Origin: a virus
Lineage: Duplodnaviria; Caudoviricetes
Length of the DNA stretch: 64,000 nucleotides
Direction: 5' to 3' (one strand)
Virus record (IMG/VR): IMGVR_UViG_3300032038_000034
Span: 38,773 to 102,772 of that record
Shown here in pieces: positions 1,096-54,938 of the stretch. The stretch's first letter is position 1. Each line of letters starts with the position of its first letter. The notes under the pieces are model-generated. The model was given only the letters and a program-made list of their open reading frames with translations, searched no databases and was not told the DNA's origin. Both the position numbers and the translations under genes were made by a program.

Positions 1096-1318
1096 CTTAG
1101 CGTGTGTGAGGTAAACTGTTGTGACACGGGTTCGACCCCCGTACGCTCCACTAACAATAATAAAATTGGGGCGTAATTGGTATAGAACGCAGTGGAAGTA
1201 AACACATTAAGCGCTTTGATATAAAAATTAACTGGCAATATTAACATTGCAGACTACACGGGCCTCCAGGAGGCAGCGTGAAGTCGGTGTACAGGCTACC
1301 TAAGTGCCTGTGAAACGA
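1096..1318 (+). ncRNA. ssrA: Circularly permuted (two-piece) tmRNA; predicted tag GNINIADYTGLQEAA*
   Basis: The 3' tRNA-like half (GAC, T-arm ACGGG-TTCGACC-CCCGT 1126-1142, ACGCTCC-A 1143-1150) precedes the 5' half (GGGGCGT 1168-1174). Together they form a 7-bp acceptor stem with G3:U70 and A73. Resume context TAACT-GGC; tag ORF 1234-1281 ends Ala-Ala-TGA. Outer boundaries are approximate. Confidence 0.88.
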
Positions 1319-1376
1319 GAGTGAGTTAAACTGGGCATCTTCGGATGCGGTGGGTTCGAGTCCCACACTCACTCCA
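1319..1376 (+). ncRNA. tRNA-like mini-RNA (no D stem; UUCG hairpin in place of the anticodon arm)
   Basis: 8-bp stem GAGTGAGT/ACTCACTC, hairpin GCATC-TTCG-GATGC, canonical T-arm GTGGG-TTCGAGT-CCCAC. Confidence 0.7.
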
Positions 1377-1440
1377 AAACGTCGTGAGACGCCGTATCTT
1401 TCGAATCTAATTACTTTTGCTCCACAGCGGTGGAGCATTT

Positions 1441-1514
1441 GGTTCCTTAGCTCAGCTGGATAGAGCAACAGATTTCTAATCTGTGGGTCAAAGGTTCGAA
1501 TCCTTTAGGAATCA
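1441..1514 (+). tRNA. tRNA-Arg (anticodon TCT)
   Basis: Full cloverleaf: GGTTCCT/AGGAATC, D arm GCTC..GAGC, anticodon arm ACAGA-TTTCTAA-TCTGT, T arm AAAGG-TTCGAAT-CCTTT. Confidence 0.95.
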
Positions 1515-1535
1515 CAAATTTAAAACATAATCAAT

Positions 1536-1931
1536 ATGAGAACAATATCCTACGATTATTTCTGTAACATCTCAGTAAAATTAGAAAAATTTGTTACAGA
1601 GAACCCAAAAGTATTAAGTTCACCAGGCAAATTGCAAAACAAATTACACCTTGCATCAAATAATTGTAAGGAATTACACAAAATTGCTCAACTTTATTGG
1701 AGTGGTTGTGTACCATTGAGAAGATTAGTATTGTCCATCATTGTTGTAAAATTTTGGAAAGATAGTGTAATATTTGAAAATTGTATGGGAGATTGTGCAG
1801 TATACCAATATATGGTAGCTAGATACGAACCACATCTGCCATATGCAAGGGCAGATATATACACAAAAGCAAAAAGCTTGGAAAAATTTATGTTTGATAC
1901 ATGGGAAAACAAGGATATCGAGAAATGTTGA
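1536..1931 (+). CDS. Hypothetical protein
   Basis: 131-aa ORF preceded by ATCAAT; overlaps the next gene. Confidence 0.7.
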   Translation: MRTISYDYFCNISVKLEKFVTENPKVLSSPGKLQNKLHLASNNCKELHKIAQLYWSGCVPLRRLVLSIIVVKFWKDSVIFENCMGDCAVYQYMVARYEPHLPYARADIYTKAKSLEKFMFDTWENKDIEKC

Positions 1932-2437
1932 GGGACAGATGTCCTAAAACAGTCGATGACGCTTTGAAATGGCAAAAAGCCAAAGATAAGTGGGTAGAAC
2001 ATACTTATTGTCATTTTGTACGTATTGTAGGTGACAAATACAGTTCTGAGAACAAATTGTTACAGAAAGCTCCTGAGAATAAGAAGGAGATTGTACGTGC
2101 AATTCTCGGTATTGTAAAAGGGAAACCGAAGAATTTCGTATTCGACAAAAGTATTGATTGGGACGACCTTACTGATGAAGAACGTGTATTTTGGAAGCGC
2201 GTTTCATCATGGGTATCGTGGTTCAGCTCTGAGTATGCATATATCCAAAATGCATACAATATCTCTAAAAAGGCAGGTAAAGATGATATGTCTATTAAAG
2301 TAGAAATCATCAATACCTACCTGAACGCATTTATGCCTTCAAAAAATGCTGATGAAGAAGAAAAACAAGCTAAATACGCATATGTAGATAGGCTTGTGAA
2401 TTATTTGATTCGGTGCTTAGAAAGGGATTATGTGTAG
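1925..2437 (+). CDS. Hypothetical protein
   Basis: ORF; the ATG at 1925 overlaps the upstream stop (alternative start 1901). Confidence 0.7.
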   Translation: MLRDRCPKTVDDALKWQKAKDKWVEHTYCHFVRIVGDKYSSENKLLQKAPENKKEIVRAILGIVKGKPKNFVFDKSIDWDDLTDEERVFWKRVSSWVSWFSSEYAYIQNAYNISKKAGKDDMSIKVEIINTYLNAFMPSKNADEEEKQAKYAYVDRLVNYLIRCLERDYV

Positions 2438-2852
2438 TATATTTTCCAAATATTTGTTACCCTTAGGGGTAAACGATGCAGATGCTAAGCCTAGCGTAGT
2501 TTATGATCATTTGCGTATCGCATACAATCAAGGCGCAAGGGGTATATTAGACAACGCTAACGTGTTTGCATTAGAGGACGGTGAAATTAATTGTGACGTG
2601 TTGTATGAAATCTGGAGGAATGAAGGCCTTCATGATGTTCTAACGTGGGTAAATAAAAAGATTACTCTACGTTTGGGAATCGCTGACTATCGAACGATAG
2701 GTGTTCGAATGCGAATTGCAACCGGTATGCTAAATAAATTAGTAAGTGAAGGACGTTTATCTAGAAAAATGAATATAACAATTCACAACAATTTCATTAC
2801 AGTGATCAATGGTGAGCTTTCTGCTATAAATACAGAAGACTTGCCATTTTAG
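2430..2852 (+). CDS. Hypothetical protein with SSB-like acidic C-terminal tip (EDLPF)
   Basis: 140-aa ORF coupled to the upstream gene; ends in TAG. Confidence 0.7.
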   Translation: MCSIFSKYLLPLGVNDADAKPSVVYDHLRIAYNQGARGILDNANVFALEDGEINCDVLYEIWRNEGLHDVLTWVNKKITLRLGIADYRTIGVRMRIATGMLNKLVSEGRLSRKMNITIHNNFITVINGELSAINTEDLPF

Positions 2853-2954
2853 CCCCGACAACCTAACCCGGATTGGTATTCCGGCGGGGCACTAAGCGTT
2901 TCGGTTCCGCGTACAGGAGTGACACCTTAATAAACCGAGTAAATTTGTTTGATT

Positions 2955-3518
2955 ATGAACCCACGTATTACCCCCGAGGAAGTTGGGATGATCAAAAGAG
3001 CTCAAGCAGGTGATGAATCTGCATTTAATGCGCTTTTCTATAGGTACAAAGGATTTGTGGAGAATCTCCTCTTTCACTATCTTAAAGATATGGATGAGGC
3101 CAAAGACGTTGCAAATATCGTCTTTTTGAAAGTGCATCAAAAACTCTCTAAATTCACAGCATATGACTCCTTTGGAGGATGGCTGAGAATTTTAACTAAT
3201 CGTACTGCTATTGACTATTTGCGTTCACAAGAAAACAAAAGAGTGGCACCTGATGCGAAAGAAGAAAGACTAACTTCAGACGTTCAGGGTTCTACTGAAG
3301 ATGACCTAGTCAACCATCTGACGTATAAAGAACTGCTACCTGAGTTCAACAAGTTGCCAGAGATCACTCGTAAGATCTTCACAATGTTCTATGTGAATAA
3401 TAATACCATAGAAGAGATTAGTAATTCGTTCAATCCGAAAATCCCAACAGGAACTATTAAGTCAACGTTGTCGAGAACTAGGAAAAAGTTAAAACAACGC
3501 TTAAAATTAAAAGTATGA
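2955..3518 (+). CDS. ECF-type RNA polymerase sigma-70 factor
   Basis: Region 2 motifs (AQAGDESAFNALF, DEAKDV..VFLKV, FGGWL..L..RTAIDYLR) and region 4 HTH (TIEEIS..IPTGTIKSTLSR). Confidence 0.92.
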   Translation: MNPRITPEEVGMIKRAQAGDESAFNALFYRYKGFVENLLFHYLKDMDEAKDVANIVFLKVHQKLSKFTAYDSFGGWLRILTNRTAIDYLRSQENKRVAPDAKEERLTSDVQGSTEDDLVNHLTYKELLPEFNKLPEITRKIFTMFYVNNNTIEEISNSFNPKIPTGTIKSTLSRTRKKLKQRLKLKV

Positions 3519-3928
3519 CATTCTTAATGTTCGTTCTCGGAATAATTATTATTGCCGGTATCGCACGATACAATCAAAGCAATAAGTTATTCTGGACCCT
3601 GTTCATAGCCTTTGTATTAGGCTTTGCAGGTAAGAAGCTCGTGAATGACACGTTCTTCTCGGAGAAGGAACAAAGTGGAACGTCGCTCAACCAGGCGTAC
3701 CCCACACAAGGGCTCGCAGTATCGTTAGACTCAAACATGTGTCTATTCACAAACGAAAACTGTTCAGCAACCGATGTGGAAACACAAAACCTTGTGAGTC
3801 AGGAATATACGCCTGATTTTGTTGAGCATACTCCCACTTTGAGTAATGTCCCTGGGGTGACTCAGTGGATAAACCTTCACATTCTTCCAAACCCACCAAA
3901 TGATATAATACCTCATGATACCTCATGA
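3515..3928 (+). CDS. Membrane protein with two N-terminal TM helices, coupled to the sigma gene
   Basis: Hydrophobic segments at aa ~2-17 and ~24-38; start overlaps the sigma stop codon. Confidence 0.75.
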   Translation: MTFLMFVLGIIIIAGIARYNQSNKLFWTLFIAFVLGFAGKKLVNDTFFSEKEQSGTSLNQAYPTQGLAVSLDSNMCLFTNENCSATDVETQNLVSQEYTPDFVEHTPTLSNVPGVTQWINLHILPNPPNDIIPHDTS

Positions 3929-4012
3929 AAGTATCATCTATCTACGTGGAATTGGTTATAGTTAAGCAGACTAACCACCTGCAAGTAATTAATTTATAAA
4001 CACATTATCAAA

Positions 4013-5395
4013 ATGGGTAAAAACACTAAAAGTGCTGCACAAGCTGCAGCAGAACAGGCTGCTCCCGCAACTACCACTCGTCTTGACGGAGGTAAGTTAG
4101 AGACTCCTGCAACAAAGGGTCTCTCACAGGGAGAAAAAGTAAACTACATCGCAGCCATTCAGACTGAGCGCGCATTCATGATGCAGAACGTCGAGAATCC
4201 GTCTCAGAGCATGATCGATGGCTTCACGTTGCTCGCACAGGCAACTATTCTCGATGTAGCAGTTGGCGAAATCGCCACTGGTAGAAGTGTTGTCGGAAAC
4301 ATTATTACCGCAAACGAGAACAATTACAAGGCGCTTCAGGCAATGGCTTTGGAGCGTGGTATTAAACTTCCTGAGTACAAGGCTCTGCCTGCTCCTACAG
4401 AAGAGCAGCTGAAGATTCACGGCCTTCTCGACATTAAGCCCGCCGACGCTAAGGTTCTTAACGTTGAAGCGAGTAACGTGTCTGACCGCGCAATCGAGCA
4501 GAAGAAGAAGGAGATCGCCGCTGTCGCCAAGGCAGTTGACAATCCTGCAGAGATAAAGACGAAGGAACAGTTGAAGGCCTCTTTGACCGCTATGCTGGTT
4601 AAGCCTATCACAGACGGTATCGACCGTCCTGATGCTCGTGTACAGCGCACTATCAAGTTCTATCGTGGTTATTTGACCATCCAGGCCAATGCCGCAGAGG
4701 ACAAGAAGACTGCTCTGGAGGAGATGAAGGCTAAGACTCGCCAGGATATGCTGAACGAGATTGCCGAGATCGTTGGTCCATGTCCGTTCTCTCTTAACGG
4801 TACCGCCTACTTTCTTCGCAAGCGTGCCATTGAGACCGGTTCTCCTATCTCCGCATTCTGCCTCTATCGTCGTAGTGCCGTTCCTGAAAAGGATAATGCC
4901 ATTGACGATTCTTACGTGGCTGACATAACACGTATTCTCTTGCTCTGGTCTTGCAACAGCCGTATCGCTGAATGCAATTCTATCCTGAAGGAGCAGAAGA
5001 AGCACGTTGAGAACGAGACTGGCGCTGCTAAGGCAGCTACAGAAGCCGCTATTCGTTACAACGAAGCAGCTATCGAAGAGATGAAGCAGGTTATCGAGTG
5101 GGTTAACAATCCTACATTCGATATCGTAGACAGTCTGGTTGAAGACTACAATGCAGAAGACCAGGAGTCTGAGAAGTGCAAACTTGCTCACCGCATCGTC
5201 TCTAACATCATGTCCACCTATTATCCTGAGATCGATATCAAGAAGGCAGACAAGGATAGCATGTTGAAGAATGTTCAGCAGCGTGCTGGTATCATTATCA
5301 ACATGTTCCGTGGTCCTCTTGCTCAGTCTATCTCTTACGCAGAGGGTAACCTGACGGATATCATTGTTTCTGAGGAGGAGAATGGAGGCGAATAA
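4013..5395 (+). CDS. Hypothetical alpha-helical protein (460 aa), probably highly expressed
   Basis: Long ORF with strong codon bias; CATTATCAAA-ATG start context identical to the gene at 76. Confidence 0.9.
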   Translation: MGKNTKSAAQAAAEQAAPATTTRLDGGKLETPATKGLSQGEKVNYIAAIQTERAFMMQNVENPSQSMIDGFTLLAQATILDVAVGEIATGRSVVGNIITANENNYKALQAMALERGIKLPEYKALPAPTEEQLKIHGLLDIKPADAKVLNVEASNVSDRAIEQKKKEIAAVAKAVDNPAEIKTKEQLKASLTAMLVKPITDGIDRPDARVQRTIKFYRGYLTIQANAAEDKKTALEEMKAKTRQDMLNEIAEIVGPCPFSLNGTAYFLRKRAIETGSPISAFCLYRRSAVPEKDNAIDDSYVADITRILLLWSCNSRIAECNSILKEQKKHVENETGAAKAATEAAIRYNEAAIEEMKQVIEWVNNPTFDIVDSLVEDYNAEDQESEKCKLAHRIVSNIMSTYYPEIDIKKADKDSMLKNVQQRAGIIINMFRGPLAQSISYAEGNLTDIIVSEEENGGE

Positions 5396-5886: not shown

Positions 5887-8030
5887 TCACTCCGGTGTGG
5901 GGGATGCATGAGGATTTGTGTGTCCCCCGGCCAGATTGGCAACACGTCAGAGCTATGTAAACGGTCTCATTAGCCGGGCTCGAAATAGTACAACTTGATC
6001 TGAGAATATGTTAGCCTGCTCAACAGGTGAGAAATGCAAAAGGTAGGATGAAATGCTGTAAGTTTATGCGTACTACATAACTGAATCGCTTACAGTAAGA
6101 GGACAGAGCGTTTGTATCAAGTCCTTTGGCCCTTGAGAACCGACTGGTGAAGGATAACCATAAAAACGCGTAAGACCCCTAGGGGCAAAATGATGCCGTA
6201 TTCGACACACTAACTGATGATACATAAGGTTAGCATAACGATACAGGAGTTGCAACATTAAGTTTGACACCAACCACTTAATGATGTATCAATAAGCTGT
6301 AGCTTAGTCCTTCATCCGGGCTCTTCGGAGGTCCAACCGGATGTGTAAGGGAGTGAAAATTATCTGAGTATATTCGCCTAGCAGAAGGTGTGACTGTCTG
6401 CGCCGTACCGTAACTACGGTCCTTGGAGAAATCCTTGCCGTTCGATTCGTGCACAACTCCGTTGAAGGGGTGCCAGGGATGGGGTACAGAGGAAAATATG
6501 ATGAAGATGACCGCCAGGCCTTGGTCGTTCATGCGGTATATAAAAGTAGAATGACTGCCAGTGGATGCAACACTTGAAGTTCTTGTGGTTCTGGAGCCCA
6601 AGGATGCGCGACTGAAGCCCGCGAAGAAAGGCTATTGTAAATGATAACACGCATTGGTAAGCGAATGTGATGTTTGAAATAGGAAATGCAATTAGATGAC
6701 AACTTGACAGTCAGACGTTTGTTTTGGGTGGTCGATTCGAAGCCTATACATTCCAGTATAGAGGGAGATCGCTTCCTTCGAAAGTAAGATGATAGTTAGA
6801 TGACGAACTGTATGCGATATACCGTCATACTTTATCGGGAGAAGATTCTAACGAAGATAATACGTAGTAGAAAACAAAAGAGATATTAACATGTTTAACA
6901 AAAATTGATGTTCCCAGCTGGTGGAAGGAATAAAGACAACTTTGTATGTATGCGCCATCACGCCTGGAGTTCGAGTGCCAACCGTTCCTGAGAAGCAAGT
7001 AGCAGAATGAGATACAACGATCGCTATCTAAGCTTGAGTCGCCAAAAGAGCAATCGAATAGGTAGCCGTGGGTAGCGACTTGAAGTAGGACAGCAAATCC
7101 TTTGTAGTCCATAAAGCAATATACATTTAATCGATGGGCAGCTTATCGTGAAGTTATTAGCCACCTCCCTGTCTCGGAGGGGTAAAGAAAATGAGTAATT
7201 AGTCTGTCGAAAGACAGTTCGCTGATGAAAAGGATTCGGCAAATATGAATCTTTAAGTGGGTGACAAGAAGCGATGTATGAGGTGAAATCCCTCCAGTAT
7301 TCGTGCACTATAAACAAATGAGGCAAGCACTTGCCAAGAGAAGAAAACAAGCCGTAGAGTTATTTGGTTCTGGAGCCTAGACTGTCCGATAACGAAGCAC
7401 GTCCCGTGCAATGACACACGCACGTCATGATGAAAAGGGAAAAGGTAAACAGTAGCGTACGCCTTAAAGTATGCGACATCAGAGAAAATCTGTGGTTAAG
7501 TAACAATCACTGTGTAATAACTCGTAGTAGCTTGGGAAATATACTTACAGAGAAATTACGCAATCTTTTGAGGGGTCCTATGAGCATTAGTTGGCCTAGC
7601 CAAAATTTTGCCAACGGACAAAAAGACGTCGGAACTAGTACGCAAGGAACGTATTCGATGCATGTTTTACGAAAAATAGACATAACTACATATGGTTCTA
7701 GTAAACTTAGTGATTGAATTCACATATTCAGCATTTAAAGCTTTAGCACCTGTTGATGATGATGGGCATGGATGATTCTACCGTTGAATCCCCGTTACAC
7801 GAGTTGAGCTTCATTTTAAGGAATATAGAAGTGTAACTAGTCGTCAATAAAAACGTGCTTCCCATTAGCACAGCAACTGAAAACATAATAGGTTGAACAA
7901 ACCGCATCCAGTAGAACCTCCGAGTCGGATGTAAAACTATTTTAGAGGTCACGGACACACCCAGAAGTGTCCATAGTTTTTAATCTTATCGTTGGTGGAT
8001 CAACCACGATATCAAACAGGATAAGAAAAA
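5887..8030 (+). ncRNA. Large (~2.1 kb) structured non-coding RNA region, unclassified
   Basis: No credible ORF in an otherwise gene-dense arm. Many stems with GNRA/UUCG loops: CATCCGG..CTC-TTCG-GAG..CCGGATG 6313-6343, CTGTC-GAAA-GACAG 7204-7217, T-loop-like GAGG-TGAAATC-CCTC 7280-7294, SRL-like 7627-7660. Strand inferred from flanking genes and tetraloop polarity. Confidence 0.65.
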
Positions 8031-8705
8031 ATGAGTAACGAAAAAACAATTGATGTAAACATCAAAACCGTATTGGCCGACAACCGTCAGGCCGCAAGTT
8101 TAATTGGCGCGCTGATTGGTAAGGCTTACGCCAAAGTAGAAAGCCGCGACTGCTGGCAGGGTGGTAAAGAAGGTTTCGAGAACGATAAAGCCAAGGCAAC
8201 AGCTCCTGGTGCAGCAGGTCTCATTCTCAATCGCTCTCCTCGCAAGTTCATGTTGAAGATTCAGGACATCCTCGGCGCCCAGATGTACGTACAGCCTCTG
8301 ACCAAGCAGGTCGGCGTTGTAGTAAATCTGGACAGTTCCAATGGTTCCTACGACATGTTCTTCCCGCTGGACGGCTCTAACCCCACTGTCGCTGAGAAGC
8401 CTATGGCAGAAGCCATTTCTGATGCTCTGAAGGGTGAAGGTCAGAACTTCTTCCTGGAGCCCTCTAAGGTTGTCGCTGTTGTCAACGAGGGTAACCGCGC
8501 TGAGGTCAAGAACATTGACACTCTGATCGGTGCTCTGAACAAGATGAAGCAGAACATCATCACGACAATCAACGAGAACGAGAAGAAGGCTATCGAGATC
8601 GATAAGGAGTGGGCCACTTCTAAGGTTAATGGTGTTGACATCAAGGATGTCGTAGCCAGCGCATCTAGTGCTGTACTCAACGTTCATACTGCTACTGAGG
8701 AATAG
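8031..8705 (+). CDS. Hypothetical protein
   Basis: 224-aa ORF with strong codon bias; ends in TAG. Confidence 0.85.
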   Translation: MSNEKTIDVNIKTVLADNRQAASLIGALIGKAYAKVESRDCWQGGKEGFENDKAKATAPGAAGLILNRSPRKFMLKIQDILGAQMYVQPLTKQVGVVVNLDSSNGSYDMFFPLDGSNPTVAEKPMAEAISDALKGEGQNFFLEPSKVVAVVNEGNRAEVKNIDTLIGALNKMKQNIITTINENEKKAIEIDKEWATSKVNGVDIKDVVASASSAVLNVHTATEE

Positions 8706-10423: not shown

Positions 10424-11137
10424 ATGAGTAAGAATAACACCGTAGACACTGCCCAGAAGGGTCAGACTGCAACTAAGAATAATATCCCCACAGGTAAAGT
10501 AAAAACTCTTGCTGACGCTACAGAGCGTCGTAAGACACGTGAAGAACAGTTCCGTAATTTCCGTATCAACGCCTTGCGTCGTCGTTGTAAACGCATGGGC
10601 TTCGATGAGGAGAAGACGGAAGAGCTCGTAAAGAAGCTCATAGAACAGATGAATGCTCCCAAAGAGTATAACATCGTAGTAATGTTCGATAACTCCGACT
10701 ATAACATGCTTAAGGAAGCTGTTGAGAACGCCAAGATTAAATACAACGTTCTGATAAGCGGAAACACCAAGGCCCGAGTATCACTTGCATACATGTCTCT
10801 TGAGGGCGACCAGAATGTTCTGGCCAAGTTGCGAGAGATTGCACCGCCTAGCGCCAAGATATATCCGTATGCCAAGAAGATGGAATCCGTGCTGCCAAAG
10901 GCAGAGCCGAAGAAGAAGAAACCTTCTAACAACAGTAAGGAGAAGGCCGCTGCTGTAAAAGCTGCACGCAAGGAGAAGAATATTCACATCCATCGCAGCA
11001 AGAAGACCGGAAAGGTCACTAAGAGAGTAGTGCTAAAAACGCTCTCTGCCGTGAAGAAACGTAAGCCTAGTGTAGTTGTCCACCTGAACCCTAAAAAGGC
11101 GTCAGAAGGCTCTAAAACAGCTAAGAAGGCCGCTTAA
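10424..11137 (+). CDS. Lys-rich basic protein, possible nucleic-acid binder; ends KKAA
   Basis: 237-aa ORF; the central segment has an alternating beta/alpha pattern and the tail is very basic. Confidence 0.85.
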   Translation: MSKNNTVDTAQKGQTATKNNIPTGKVKTLADATERRKTREEQFRNFRINALRRRCKRMGFDEEKTEELVKKLIEQMNAPKEYNIVVMFDNSDYNMLKEAVENAKIKYNVLISGNTKARVSLAYMSLEGDQNVLAKLREIAPPSAKIYPYAKKMESVLPKAEPKKKKPSNNSKEKAAAVKAARKEKNIHIHRSKKTGKVTKRVVLKTLSAVKKRKPSVVVHLNPKKASEGSKTAKKAA

Positions 11138-12157: not shown

Positions 12158-12231
12158 GAGTGAGTTAGCTCAGTTGGTAGAGCAGCGAGTTAAGTCGGCT
12201 ATGTCGCAGGTTCGAGCCCTGCACTCACTCC
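12158..12231 (+). tRNA. tRNA-like gene with intact acceptor, D and T arms but a defective anticodon arm
   Basis: GAGTGAGT/ACTCACTC stem (identical to the 1319 element), GCTC-AGTTGGTA-GAGC, GCAGG-TTCGAGC-CCTGC. The segment AGCGAGTTAAGTCGGCT cannot form a 5-bp stem with a 7-nt loop. Confidence 0.7.
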
Positions 12232-44500: not shown

Positions 44501-45881
44501 TATATATATCAAATTCTGCAAGTTGTTTTTTGGCCGAACCTATCTCTTTTGTAATCTTATTTAACCAATCCTAGTTGTTATCGTTTGAATACAAAAGACC
44601 TTGTATGTTATCTAATTTCTTATCTAATCCGTATAAATTTCCTCTAATTCCACCAAGGTCGTCGTCAACAATCTTGTCAATTCTCTAAGCTATTCTAGAA
44701 GGTATAGATGTTGGTGCCCAACTTGCTAAATTATTGGCCACCTTCCACCAATCTTGCTATTGTAACTATTCTCGGATATCTCTATTTCTATAAAGTAAAT
44801 CTGCGTATAGTTTACGTTTTTCTTCGCTTAGCCCAGAAAGAGAATATTCGTTGTTTACAAATCTGCTGCCGCCTTCTAATGTTTTTGTGTTGGCTTCGTT
44901 TTCTCTATTAAATCTCTACAGTTGCGCTAAGTTATTAGCATATTCTTCTATAAGGTCTAAATTATCTTTTGTGCTCTACGATAAACCTAATAATTCATTA
45001 GATCTTTGTATTTGGCCAACAGGAACTTTTAATTGGCTTGCGTTTGTTTCTTCCATGAAGTCAGAAGCAAAACTTTTAGTCCACGCGGATTTTACTAATT
45101 CGGCAAGCTTTAAGCCCAAGTTCATAGTTCCTCCCGTTCCTACAGGAAGATTAACGCTTTTTCCAAAATAATCAGTAGGTTTTTCTACCGGTTTAGAATT
45201 GTCATCAGACATTAAATCTAATTGGATTTCAGCATCGTTTATTCTATCCTACAGGTATATAGGATCTGTTATCATCTTATAAGAATCTATCTCTCGATAC
45301 TCCTCATTTGAAAGTTGATAATCCTTGTTTAATTTACCAAACGTATTATTTTCTCTAATACGGCGGTTCATTCTATCTGTAGCAAGTTCTTTACCGGCTT
45401 TATCGTCCTCTTTAAACAGCTAGTTCATCTTAACTGCAGCTTTTGCAGCAATACTAGCCGGACTCATGTCTTTATTTGTTATTGCACGCAAAGATTGTCT
45501 TGAAGCCCATTGATTATATCTCGGATCCAACGGAGAAGGAATAAACTGGTCTTGAAACGCTGTAGGATCCGATGTTCTTGCAAGATAACTTTCAGGCGAT
45601 TCTGCGGTATAAGATTTTCCTCCTATACCGCTTTTCGCTGTTGAGCTGGGCTCTACTGTTTTTTTATCTTGTGCAACAGCATCCTTACGCTCAGATTCCT
45701 CTCTGTTGTTATTCTACGTTTCTTCACTCTATGCTGGCTGCGACAAAGATTCAACTTGCTCTTTTATTCTTTTTGCTTCATAATAAGCATCTAACGCCTC
45801 TTTAGCTTTTTGTAAAGTTTGTCTGTCTTCAGCAACTTTTCTTTGTTGCCAGCCTGGTGTATATTTATTCTTCTTTTTCAT
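29508..45881 (-). CDS. Giant virion RNA polymerase polyprotein (~5457 aa with TAG=Gln)
   Basis: About 20 fragments share one frame; the gaps I read contain TAG but no in-frame TAA/TGA. Catalytic GSDFDIDK (DFDID at 32637-32651), RIPTQAQSS, NVADGA, zincin HEAFH, a PD-(D/E)xK domain and a Gly/Ala-rich hydrophobic region. ATG at 45881. Confidence 0.88.
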
Positions 45882-45889
45882 AATCGTTA

Positions 45890-47578
45890 TTATTGAGCCC
45901 AACTAGGTTCTTCTGATAATATTGCATCTGTACCATATATAGTACCTTTTACAATATCGTCTGTAGTTTCTTTATCTGAATGTACAGCATTTTGATATCT
46001 TGTATCCTAAGTATTAACTATTTTTTGTCCTTTAGGTGCATGAAGCGTACCAAGTCTGCTATCATTTTTTACAGACGTAATGTTAGAATCAAGATACAAC
46101 GTTCTTGTTTTAATGTTGTCATAATCTACTTGTTGATTTCCTTTTTCATCAAGCAAAAAATTACCGTTATTATCTCTTTTGTATTTTACAGCCTAAACAA
46201 CACCTTCGAAGTGAGCCTCGTTTCTAGAATTTTTCATAAACGCCTAATAAGAACCTTCTGTGGGAGTATATACAATAACGTCAGCATCTTTCAAATCTTG
46301 TAAAGATGTTCCGATTTTTCTATTTCTGTATCCAGCCGTTCTTGATGCAAGTGTTTGCAAAGAATTAAGTTTGCCTAGATCTGATTTTGGTATTGCGATA
46401 GACTGCCCGTCAGACGTAGGTTTATATCCCATATTGACAAAATAGTTTATAATATCTTTTCTTCTATAAATATTTTGACCATAATGTTCTTTATACATCA
46501 AAATACCCTTATTAGAATATGATTTAGATCCTGTAGCATTCATTACCTGTTTGCCAAAATCAATCTGAGAATCTCTTTGTTGTCCAACAAGTTTATCAGA
46601 ATATTCCTAAACCTGTTTACCAAGTATAGCTGTAGTACCGCTTCTTCTAACAAGTTCAGCAAAACTCCACTGCGAATTTTGAGGATTTTGTTCTGCTCTA
46701 GATGCACGTGCGGCACGCATCCTAGAAGCGTCCTCTTGTTGCATTTTCCATAGTTCGTTAAGTTTTTTATCTTGATGAACTCTCTCGTGATTTGCAGCGA
46801 CTATATTTTTTCTAAACTGCTCCATTTTTTGAGCTTCTGTTGGATCTGTTATACCTTGTGCTGCTAAATCTTTAATTGCATTCTGATAATGAAATTGTCC
46901 CAAACTTGTGTTTAACAATCCGCCGAGTTTATCTGGGGTTAGCGATTTATACAAATCATTTTCAGTAACGCCATACCAATCGTAATGGTTTTTATCTGTA
47001 CCGATATACGAATCTTTTAGGTTATCAAATATATGTGTTGTATACTAATTTAAGTCTTGATATTTAGAAGTCTTACTAGCGCTCCATACACCACTCGGAC
47101 TTATGCCATTTGCAGGATCTCCTAAAGTACTCCAAGAACTTAAATCCCTGCCCAAGAATTTTTCAAGTTCCGGGTTTGTGTCGTCATCAAAAGAATCTAG
47201 ATATTTTTTTGCTGTCTCTGCACTCTATCTAACCTTAGCAATATCTCCAGTAGGCATAGAATATATTAACTATGCTACGGCAGCTCTACCTTCAGCACTT
47301 CTAAGAGGGTCTATACCTTGTGCATAAGCGTTTGTAATAAAGTCACGAACTTTGCCAGTAACATTTTTGTCGTACCAGTCCATATCTTTTTGAATAGGAC
47401 TCATAAAATCTCCATAGGTCTTGTTAAACTCTTTCATGTCTTCAAGACCTCTGAGATAATCATTGTATACAGCGTTTACATAGTCTGATTGCGCACTTAA
47501 GACCATGTTCGCTGTAGTTGGATCAAATATCTACTATCTTTGATATTCAACCGGTCTTTCTAATCCTAAAAAAGTCAT
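45890..47578 (-). CDS. Virion cargo/ejection protein (~562 aa with TAG=Gln)
   Basis: Fragments 46244, 46607 and 47270 are in frame; starts MTFLGLERPVEYQR(TAG)(TAG)IFDP; ends TAA TAA. Confidence 0.8.
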
Positions 47579-54097: not shown

Positions 54098-54938
54098 AAT
54101 AATAATCGTTGTAGAACTGCTGATCGTCTCCTTGATGCTTGAAGAACGTATCGTCTTCATCAATCTCAGGTATCAGCCTATTCCATTCATTCTTTATATT
54201 TTGTATATCGTCTGCTGTAGGCATCATTGCTTCAGCGTATGCTTGGTTTCTATAGAAATTCCATTGCTGTTGTATATAAGCATACATATTCTATCCAGCA
54301 TTTACACCTTTACCTCCCAATGTACCTTTCATCCACTTAGAGAAAGAAAGCTTCATTACAACGTACCAGTATACAGCTTCTTGATATGAAGCGAGGTCTG
54401 GTATCAGAGGATAACCTCTCTCATCTGTTGCAATAGCCTTATAGGCAAGCTTTATAAATCCGTCTCGCTTATTTGTAACCAACCAACCAGGCTTAATAAA
54501 GTATTGAGGATCTTCTGTTGGTTTATATTCCTTCAAATGTCTTGCTTTATCTAAGAACAATTGAGCTTGCGTTGTATACGCTTTGACTCTCATTGGTTGA
54601 TGTGGATCATGTGGATGTCTGTCTGGTTTTGGGTTTTTAAATATACCAGTCATAGTTCTCATTGGTACCCATCTGCCTTTTGGTTTGTCGCAATAAGCAA
54701 CACCGTCTAGATGCTATAAATCATCAGGCAACGGTACCTGATGATCCTATATCTTCAATAGTGGCACACCATCTGATCCAGATTCTTTGTGGATATACTA
54801 CATTGGTGCACCTATCTTTTCAACAGCTTCAAATATCCATTCACGTATATCTGTAGTACGCTATCTGACTTCTGTTGAGTCTAAATCTGCCATAACCTTT
54901 GCTATGATAGACTCACATTTTGTATAATTGTATATCAT
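54087..54938 (-). CDS. Tail ring/tubular protein (~283 aa with TAG=Gln)
   Basis: Read through by hand: MIYNYTKCESIIAKV...IREWIFEAVEKIGA...DERGYPLIPD...EAVYWY. Confidence 0.8.

Follow-up and report, generated by a model that had tools for sequence, protein, structure and literature searches.

Among the very large structured RNAs of phages, GOLLD reaches ~800 nucleotides (nt) and ROOL ~580 nt. Both belong to the “ornate” large non-coding RNAs, which occur in phages and prophages as well as in bacteria of the gut or rumen, and cryo-electron microscopy has shown them to be RNA-only homo-oligomeric cages (PMC12286853). A third RNA of this size, the OLE RNA (ornate, large, extremophilic; ~600 nt), works together with partner proteins at the membrane (PMC3413148). 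For crAss-like phages, Yutin et al. described recoding, introns and regions poor in open reading frames (ORFs), with no mention of the RNA considered below (PMC7886860), and Drobysheva et al. found two long intergenic regions of the Cellulophaga phage phi14:2 (Steigviridae) with transcription stronger than that of most genes, starting at the earliest time point and persisting (bioRxiv 10.1101/2020.03.07.982082). The element analyzed in this work is a 2.1-kb gap without genes (positions 5887-8030) in a 64,000-nt window of the genome of a ruminant-gut crAss-like phage (Suoliviridae), filed as IMG/VR record IMGVR_UViG_3300032038_000034; coordinates refer to this window unless otherwise stated. 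The whole genome is a single contig of 102,772 bp, of which the window covers positions 38773-102772, so that the gap lies at genome positions 44659-46802. No description of its RNA was found in the published literature.

The gap is a conserved locus of structured non-coding RNA belonging to a family not described so far. It probably constitutes a gene, or a tight cluster of genes, for a very large structured RNA encoded on the + strand and specific to the Suoliviridae. The existence of a functional structured RNA on that strand is very probable, and the chances that the locus gives a single transcript of ~2 kb are close to even, if slightly below. The initial annotation had proposed an undescribed class of RNA here, either a single very large molecule or several clustered RNAs, and this proposal is supported by five lines of evidence: synteny and size in 37 lineages, covariation, signatures of the + strand, lack of codon periodicity, and lack of an Rfam match. 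In agreement with the last point, cmscan with the 4227 models of Rfam 15 gave no match in the gap at the gathering score and only noise at E values up to 10; in 13 related loci, only transfer RNAs (tRNAs) and transfer-messenger RNAs (tmRNAs) located outside the gap were detected.

Place and size of the gap are conserved. A gap of 2.0-2.2 kb was present between the same genes in 8 of the 8 reference genomes (five Oafivirinae genera and two unclassified phages), either without coding sequences (CDS) or with scattered small ORF calls only. The gene order was as follows: an extracytoplasmic function (ECF) sigma factor, a small membrane protein, a protein of ~460 amino acids (aa), another of ~150 aa, the gap, two ~200-aa proteins and, later, the DNA polymerase. 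Matches of the gap in blastn were restricted to crAss-like phages (Suoliviridae/Oafivirinae, and two unclassified relatives). Searching for further loci by means of the downstream protein alone retrieved no relatives, but DNA motifs succeeded: one from domain 1, a module near the 5' end (delimited below), led to 78 IMG/VR loci, and an unrelated motif from the core led to more than 101. Wherever both edges of the locus were present, the motif was always located inside a + strand ORF-free gap of 1.95-2.6 kb. The 82 full copies correspond to 37 lineages across Oafivirinae and Loutivirinae, all of which have the anchor words in the same order and with the same spacing. The Loutivirinae phage cr53_1, which blastn missed, has the same gene order and a gap of 2125 nt. 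The conserved words of the RNA did not recur elsewhere in the genome, and no module was found alone or at another place.

Covariation in the syntenic regions of the relatives was strong, with hundreds of compensatory changes when compared with slid and shuffled controls. The RNAalifold consensus of the whole gap in 23 lineages reached -288 kcal/mol with 258 pairs, 153 of them changed on both sides. In four column shuffles, the energy was -18 to -31 kcal/mol, and 7-19 of the 50-72 pairs had such double changes. Sequences from 36 lineages were then realigned in three parts (A, B and C; ~286 pairs in total), using as a control the same pairs with one partner slid by 1-3 columns. Overall, 89-91% of the cells were paired (31-49% in the slid controls), and double changes were 4-5 times more abundant than in the control: part A (112 pairs) had 89.5% of cells paired (38-46% slid) and 579 double-change cells (113-144 slid); part B (130 pairs) 88.7% (31-43%) and 739 (137-191); and part C (44 pairs) 90.6% (34-49%) and 198 (25-55).

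Domain 1 was the module with the widest conservation. Its 39 pairs were 88.6% paired (32-48% slid), and none of 500 shuffles equalled it on four of five measures. Two covariance models were used: R2, for domain 1, built from the 23 seed lineages, and R1, for the core (6376-6568), which scores 163 bits on the window. With R2, domain 1 was recognized in 14 IMG/VR lineages not used for the model (81-149 bits) and also in the gap of cr53_1 (78.5 bits, E value of 5e-18). In these 15 unseen sequences, whose alignment was fitted to the model and thus somewhat favours the structure, the seed structure was 89.5% paired (35-50% slid), 30 of the 39 pairs were changed on both sides, and none of 500 shuffles reached the observed value on all five measures. 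Neither R1 nor R2 matched the three Intestiviridae genomes searched.

Seven hairpins had been named from the single sequence (5899-5928, 6054-6097, 6313-6343, 7204-7217, 7280-7294, 7627-7660 and 7904-7932), and all of them fold as described. Taken singly, three clearly outperformed shuffled sequences (z of -4.3, -2.2 and -2.8); the weight of the other four rests on covariation, since their own z values are only -0.7 to -1.4.

The + polarity assigned to these hairpins was also supported. The consensus hairpins contained 33 GNRA loops, vs. none in the reverse-complement form, and 25 T-loops (UUCRANN) vs. 1. Consensus energies were lower for the + than for the - strand in part A (-129.8 vs. -95.5 kcal/mol), part B (-131.1 vs. 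-113.1) and part C (-41.1 vs. -37.3), and the pairs predicted on both strands comprised 152 G-U vs. 104 A-C, the latter being the G-U pairs of the opposite strand. The flanking genes are all on the + strand.

The gap lacks coding capacity, as had been claimed. Its longest ORF has 108 aa and lies on the minus strand (genetic code table 11); none was credible under four genetic codes, and reading TAG, TGA or TAA as sense opened no long + strand frame. The ORFs inside the gap had no Pfam match, and only one weak match in PHROG: a 66-aa minus-strand ORF (6073-6273) resembled PHROG 28408 (E value of 0.003), a family with no assigned function which may itself derive from false ORF predictions at this RNA locus. 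In several lineages, the + strand has recurrent ORFs of 60-130 aa near 7415-7715; they were rejected as genes and are read as chance, because their frames differ, ATG is often absent and no protein similarity was found among lineages. The period-3 power of column entropy was 103-fold the median in the downstream gene, vs. 0.4- to 2.4-fold in five sections of the gap. At 0.85-1.16 bits, mean column entropy in the gap did not exceed that of the downstream gene (1.05-1.62 bits): the nucleotide sequence of the gap is conserved at least as well as the neighbouring protein gene.

The claim that this is the largest non-coding stretch of the genome holds if TAG is taken as a sense codon in the late genes. 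Under this reading 92% of the genome is covered by ORFs, and the next-largest gaps measure 852 nt (genome 32556-33407, outside the window) and 749 nt (window 54164-54912). Frames of 2450, 1496, 3990 and 1446 aa open between 16 and 64 kb of the window, with little change in the first 16 kb, and a tRNA with anticodon CUA is encoded outside the window (genome c25316-25389). Since these long frames open only with TAG as sense and the CUA tRNA is present, the phage is considered amber-recoded in its late genes; the standard code applies to the early/replication block, in which the RNA locus lies (first 16 kb of the window). As the locus takes up 2% of a tightly packed genome and is conserved at least as well as the gene beside it, it is very likely to be important in infection.

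The features of the locus are the following:

5887-5954, + strand: 5' leader, with a long hairpin (5893-5932; -22.8 kcal/mol, z of -4.3) right after the stop codon of the upstream 153-aa gene.

5955-6150, + strand: domain 1, the most widely conserved module, with covariation and R2 matches; hairpin with a UCUCAUUAG loop (~5960-5977), helix 5995-6001/6046-6052, nested hairpin 6014-6018/6024-6028, hairpins 6054-6097 and 6100-6125, and the invariant UGAGAACCG..UGG.GA.

6142-6520, + strand: domain 2 (part A); covarying hairpins 6166-6199, 6201-6248, 6256-6283, 6302-6354, 6381-6401 and 6402-6420, a hairpin resembling a tRNA T-arm (6436-6453; 5-bp stem, loop UUCGAUU), hairpin 6456-6471 and a GNRA-capped stem.

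6521-6665, + strand: nearly invariant hairpin 6521-6558 (GACCGCCAGGC...GCGGUAUAUAAAAGU), followed by covarying hairpins 6559-6576 and 6611-6638.

6690-6890, + strand: middle section (part B); hairpin 6697-6713, helix 6727-6731/6773-6777 around 6746-6759, and a variable A/T-rich hairpin with a linker.

6888-7400, + strand: domain 3 (part B); conserved AACAUGUUUAACAAAAAU, helices 6914-6919/6962-6967 and 7032-7056, conserved GAGUGCCAACCGU, hairpin 7163-7181 with a CUGUCUC loop, and helices 7256-7264/7301-7309, 7276-7300 and 7353-7361/7380-7388.

~7375-7735, + strand: fast-evolving non-coding section which keeps its length (300-410 nt) and the short words AAUCUG.GGUUAA, GGGAAAUA and AAAUUUUGCC.

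7735-7982, + strand: 3' module (part C); helices 7740-7744/7850-7854, 7764-7793 and 7794-7799/7832-7837, and hairpin 7904-7932.

7984-8030, + strand: outer stem 7984-7993/8017-8026 enclosing AUCGUUGG..AUCAA..CGAU, just before the ATG (8031) of the downstream gene.

The sequence of the 5' leader hairpin varies among lineages, many of which have a hairpin of 13-20 bp at this place (in several of them with GCTWTGCGC at the apex). The hairpin may serve for processing of the RNA or for protection of its 5' end. Hairpin 6302-6354 contains the hairpin first seen at 6313-6343, whose UUCG cap (6321-6330) seems to have been inserted in this lineage; the GAAA hairpin of domain 3 (~7202-7217) is common to the nearest relative (L021) only. 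At the 3' end, the small hairpin 7953-7972, which covaries, precedes a T-run in this genome, and the two look like a terminator; relatives retain the hairpin but not the T-run. The last stem (7984-8026) covaries (CUUAU/AUAAG, CAUAU/AUAUG and UUCAU/AUGAA), with changes on both sides in 7 of its 9 pairs, and is either the 3' end of the RNA or an element in the 5' untranslated region (UTR) of the next gene. The helix CUGGUG/CGCCAG (6142-6149 with 6512-6519) is only a candidate closing helix: it shows conservation without covariation, and the pairing would fail in lineages that have CCGACAG. An exact 13-nt word, TGGTTCTGGAGCC, occurs twice in the locus, once in each half (6586-6598 and 7365-7377), and nowhere else in the genome; the nearest relatives retain one or both copies.

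Parts of the sequence are contained in runs filed as metatranscriptomes from several ruminant-gut studies, and RNA-library contigs from four such studies cover the locus, some of them bridging the borders between ORFs and RNA; the source of these and other runs containing the sequence was cattle and sheep gut. Summed contig depth was higher over the gap than over its flanks in 3 of 4 runs, but was not used as evidence of expression, because the depth of contigs is unsuited to ranking genes and may add up related phages. Transcription of the locus is plausible. Several observations weigh against the proposed RNA gene or gene cluster. The RNA-library data are assembled contigs, silent on strand, ends and level and open to DNA carry-over, and one run, flat across genes and gap, may be DNA. 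A scan for sigma-70-type promoters stayed at the chance level, with no promoter recognized, and the neighbouring proteins give no functional clue to the locus. The hairpins had been called continuous, which was an overstatement: most of the locus is heavily paired, but the ~350 nt at ~7375-7735 lack conserved structure, having just 6 consensus pairs across the family, and divide the locus into a 1.45-kb body and the 3' module. No helix spanning more than 700 nt rose above the parallel-stack control, and there is hence no proof that the domains form one molecule. In addition, the core model R1 misses cr53_1, which is recovered by domain 1 alone, and covariation counts taken from related sequences overstate their independence.

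Some of these observations would fit a string of several independent RNAs (domains 1, 2 and 3 and the 3' module), of 150-500 nt each, with roles of their own and linked by gene order only. This arrangement is a serious possibility, if a rather doubtful one: the well-supported helices are all local (spans of 430 nt or less), with no long-range helix above the control, the section free of structure splits the locus, and divergence is unequal, domain 1 being found in Loutivirinae and the core of domain 2 not. On the contrary, the 37 lineages all keep the total length (1.95-2.6 kb) and the module order, the locus showed no internal terminators or promoters that are conserved, and no module occurs by itself. 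The locus might also be a giant cis-acting leader (5' UTR) controlling the translation or stability of the operon that starts at 8031; it has the same direction as the next gene and directly adjoins it, the ATG is preceded, at 5-10 nt, by the end of a conserved covarying stem, and most lineages have no conserved terminator in between. We regard this as improbable: 2 kb with ~286 conserved pairs is far beyond the known bacterial leaders, the A-rich stretch before the ATG is unpaired in the fold, and the 3' element could be a small UTR structure separate from the rest.

A role at the DNA level (replication origin, packaging site or single-stranded DNA structure) could be suggested by the position of the locus among the replication genes, with the DNA polymerase 4 kb downstream, but is very improbable. 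G-U pairs, GNRA loops and T-loops are strand-specific features of RNA, and compensatory changes over ~286 pairs are unexpected for DNA that binds proteins; moreover, there are no iterons or repeat arrays (a single 13-nt word is present twice), and the locus is in the middle of a + strand gene block with no turn of the GC skew. The possibility of a decayed mobile element, a self-splicing intron or hidden coding (pseudogenes or small ORFs) has largely been refuted already and is scarcely credible, even though delta-group crAss-like phages are rich in introns (PMC7886860) and automatic annotation placed small ORFs here in some records. No match to group I or group II introns was obtained even at E values up to 10, in the gap or in the 13 related loci, and, in accordance with the initial annotation, no gene is interrupted, the flanking genes being complete and separate in all relatives; the lack of a period-3 signal, the lack of conservation of the ORFs and a nucleotide conservation at least equal to that of the flanking gene also argue against this possibility.

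With regard to neighbouring genes, the very basic proteins encoded at 10424 and 11167 (pI, isoelectric point, of 10.3 and 10.0) had been suggested as partners of the RNA, for which no support was obtained. The protein at 10424 has many uncharacterized relatives, and its AlphaFold model (predicted local distance difference test, pLDDT, of 72) shows a ferredoxin-like core with weak, generic and non-diagnostic fold matches (such as PII, ACT and RRM). It was found by tblastn in only 3 of the 8 reference phages bearing the RNA, so that co-occurrence with the RNA cannot be argued. The model of the protein at 8031 (pLDDT of 75) had no fold match in the PDB. The only Pfam family among the neighbours was the ECF-type sigma factor, whose gene is followed by that of a 137-aa protein with a hydrophobic N-terminus, which may be an anti-sigma factor; this pair lies at 2949-3928, two genes separate it from the RNA downstream, and the arrangement is kept in Oafivirinae and Loutivirinae. 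A permuted phage tmRNA (tag GNINIADYTGLQEAA) followed by tRNA-Arg(UCU) was located at 1061-1515, and tRNA-Leu(UAA) at 12159-12231, just before the DNA polymerase gene; the tmRNA is also upstream of the same gene block in related phages. In cr53_1, the family B DNA polymerase gene is interrupted by an HNH endonuclease gene (L127 12001-14813), as expected for the insertion of an intron or intein.

The Suoliviridae (“delta” crAss-like phages) are among the most abundant viruses in human and animal guts. Contigs of ~101 kb with the RNA core (R1 scores of 116-181 bits; L133 and L151, also L144, L148, L141 and L146) were present in metagenome bins labelled Segatella copri, Bacteroidaceae and Lachnospiraceae. 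These bins are a weak hint of a Segatella/Prevotella-type host, since binning is no evidence of infection.

Under the interpretation favoured here, a very large structured RNA would be read from the + strand, in the direction of the flanking sigma-factor/replication block, and would be composed of at least three covarying multi-helix domains (~5955-7400), the fast-evolving section of 350 nt and the 3' module (7735-7980). It would be made within the operon transcript, or from a promoter that the tools used here do not recognize, have its ends trimmed at hairpins (the long one on the 5' side and those on the 3' side), and accumulate as a stable particle during infection. Rather than encoding a product, it would act as a folded scaffold, RNA-only or with proteins, whose tertiary fold the T-loops and GNRA loops may hold together. 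By analogy with the ornate phage RNAs, a scaffold or particle role is proposed tentatively, at somewhat less than an even chance. A bolder and unlikely version is that the whole 2.1 kb is one transcript forming a particle the size of a ribosomal subunit (an RNA-only multimer or a ribonucleoprotein), which would act on the host gene-expression machinery, for instance in the change to late translation with recoded amber codons, or would serve as a decoy for RNA-sensing defence. At 2 kb, the conserved structured RNA locus would in any case be, to our knowledge, the largest non-ribosomal structured RNA of a phage, 2-3 times the size of GOLLD. A large RNA at this locus would offer a new large target for RNA structural biology and give crAss-like phage biology a defined, deletable element.

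The locus shares with GOLLD and ROOL that it is phage-encoded, very large, rich in covarying local helices, devoid of coding capacity and present in gut or rumen samples. It differs from them in that neither covariance model matches the gap or its 13 relatives, and in its size (2.1 kb, with a core of ~1.45 kb). GOLLD and ROOL are commonly beside tRNA genes; the nearest tRNA and tmRNA genes are here ~4 kb away on either side. OLE resembles it as a large multi-domain structured RNA, with a role, tentative for the present locus, of ribonucleoprotein scaffold rather than of a known enzyme type; however, OLE is bacterial and its partner genes are adjacent, whereas this locus is phage-encoded, has no partner that can be named and does not match the OLE model.

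The transcribed locus of phi14:2 corresponds to the CDS-free positions 2905-4601 of NC_021806 (~1.7 kb), within a + strand early block; about ten small ORF annotations were deleted from these positions in June 2020. R1 and R2, run with filters off on positions 1200-4700 of NC_021806, gave 8 bits or less, and blastn of the gap did not match this genome; the RNA of phi14:2 is therefore considered an analogue, not a relative. The two phages belong to different families. The phi14:2 RNAs, which have no reported conserved structure, were seen experimentally, whereas the locus described here is known from sequence and contigs. Both loci, on the other hand, are long CDS-free stretches in the + strand early block of a crAss-like phage, and with a second such locus the abundant phi14:2 transcripts seem to belong to a broader habit of the phage order.

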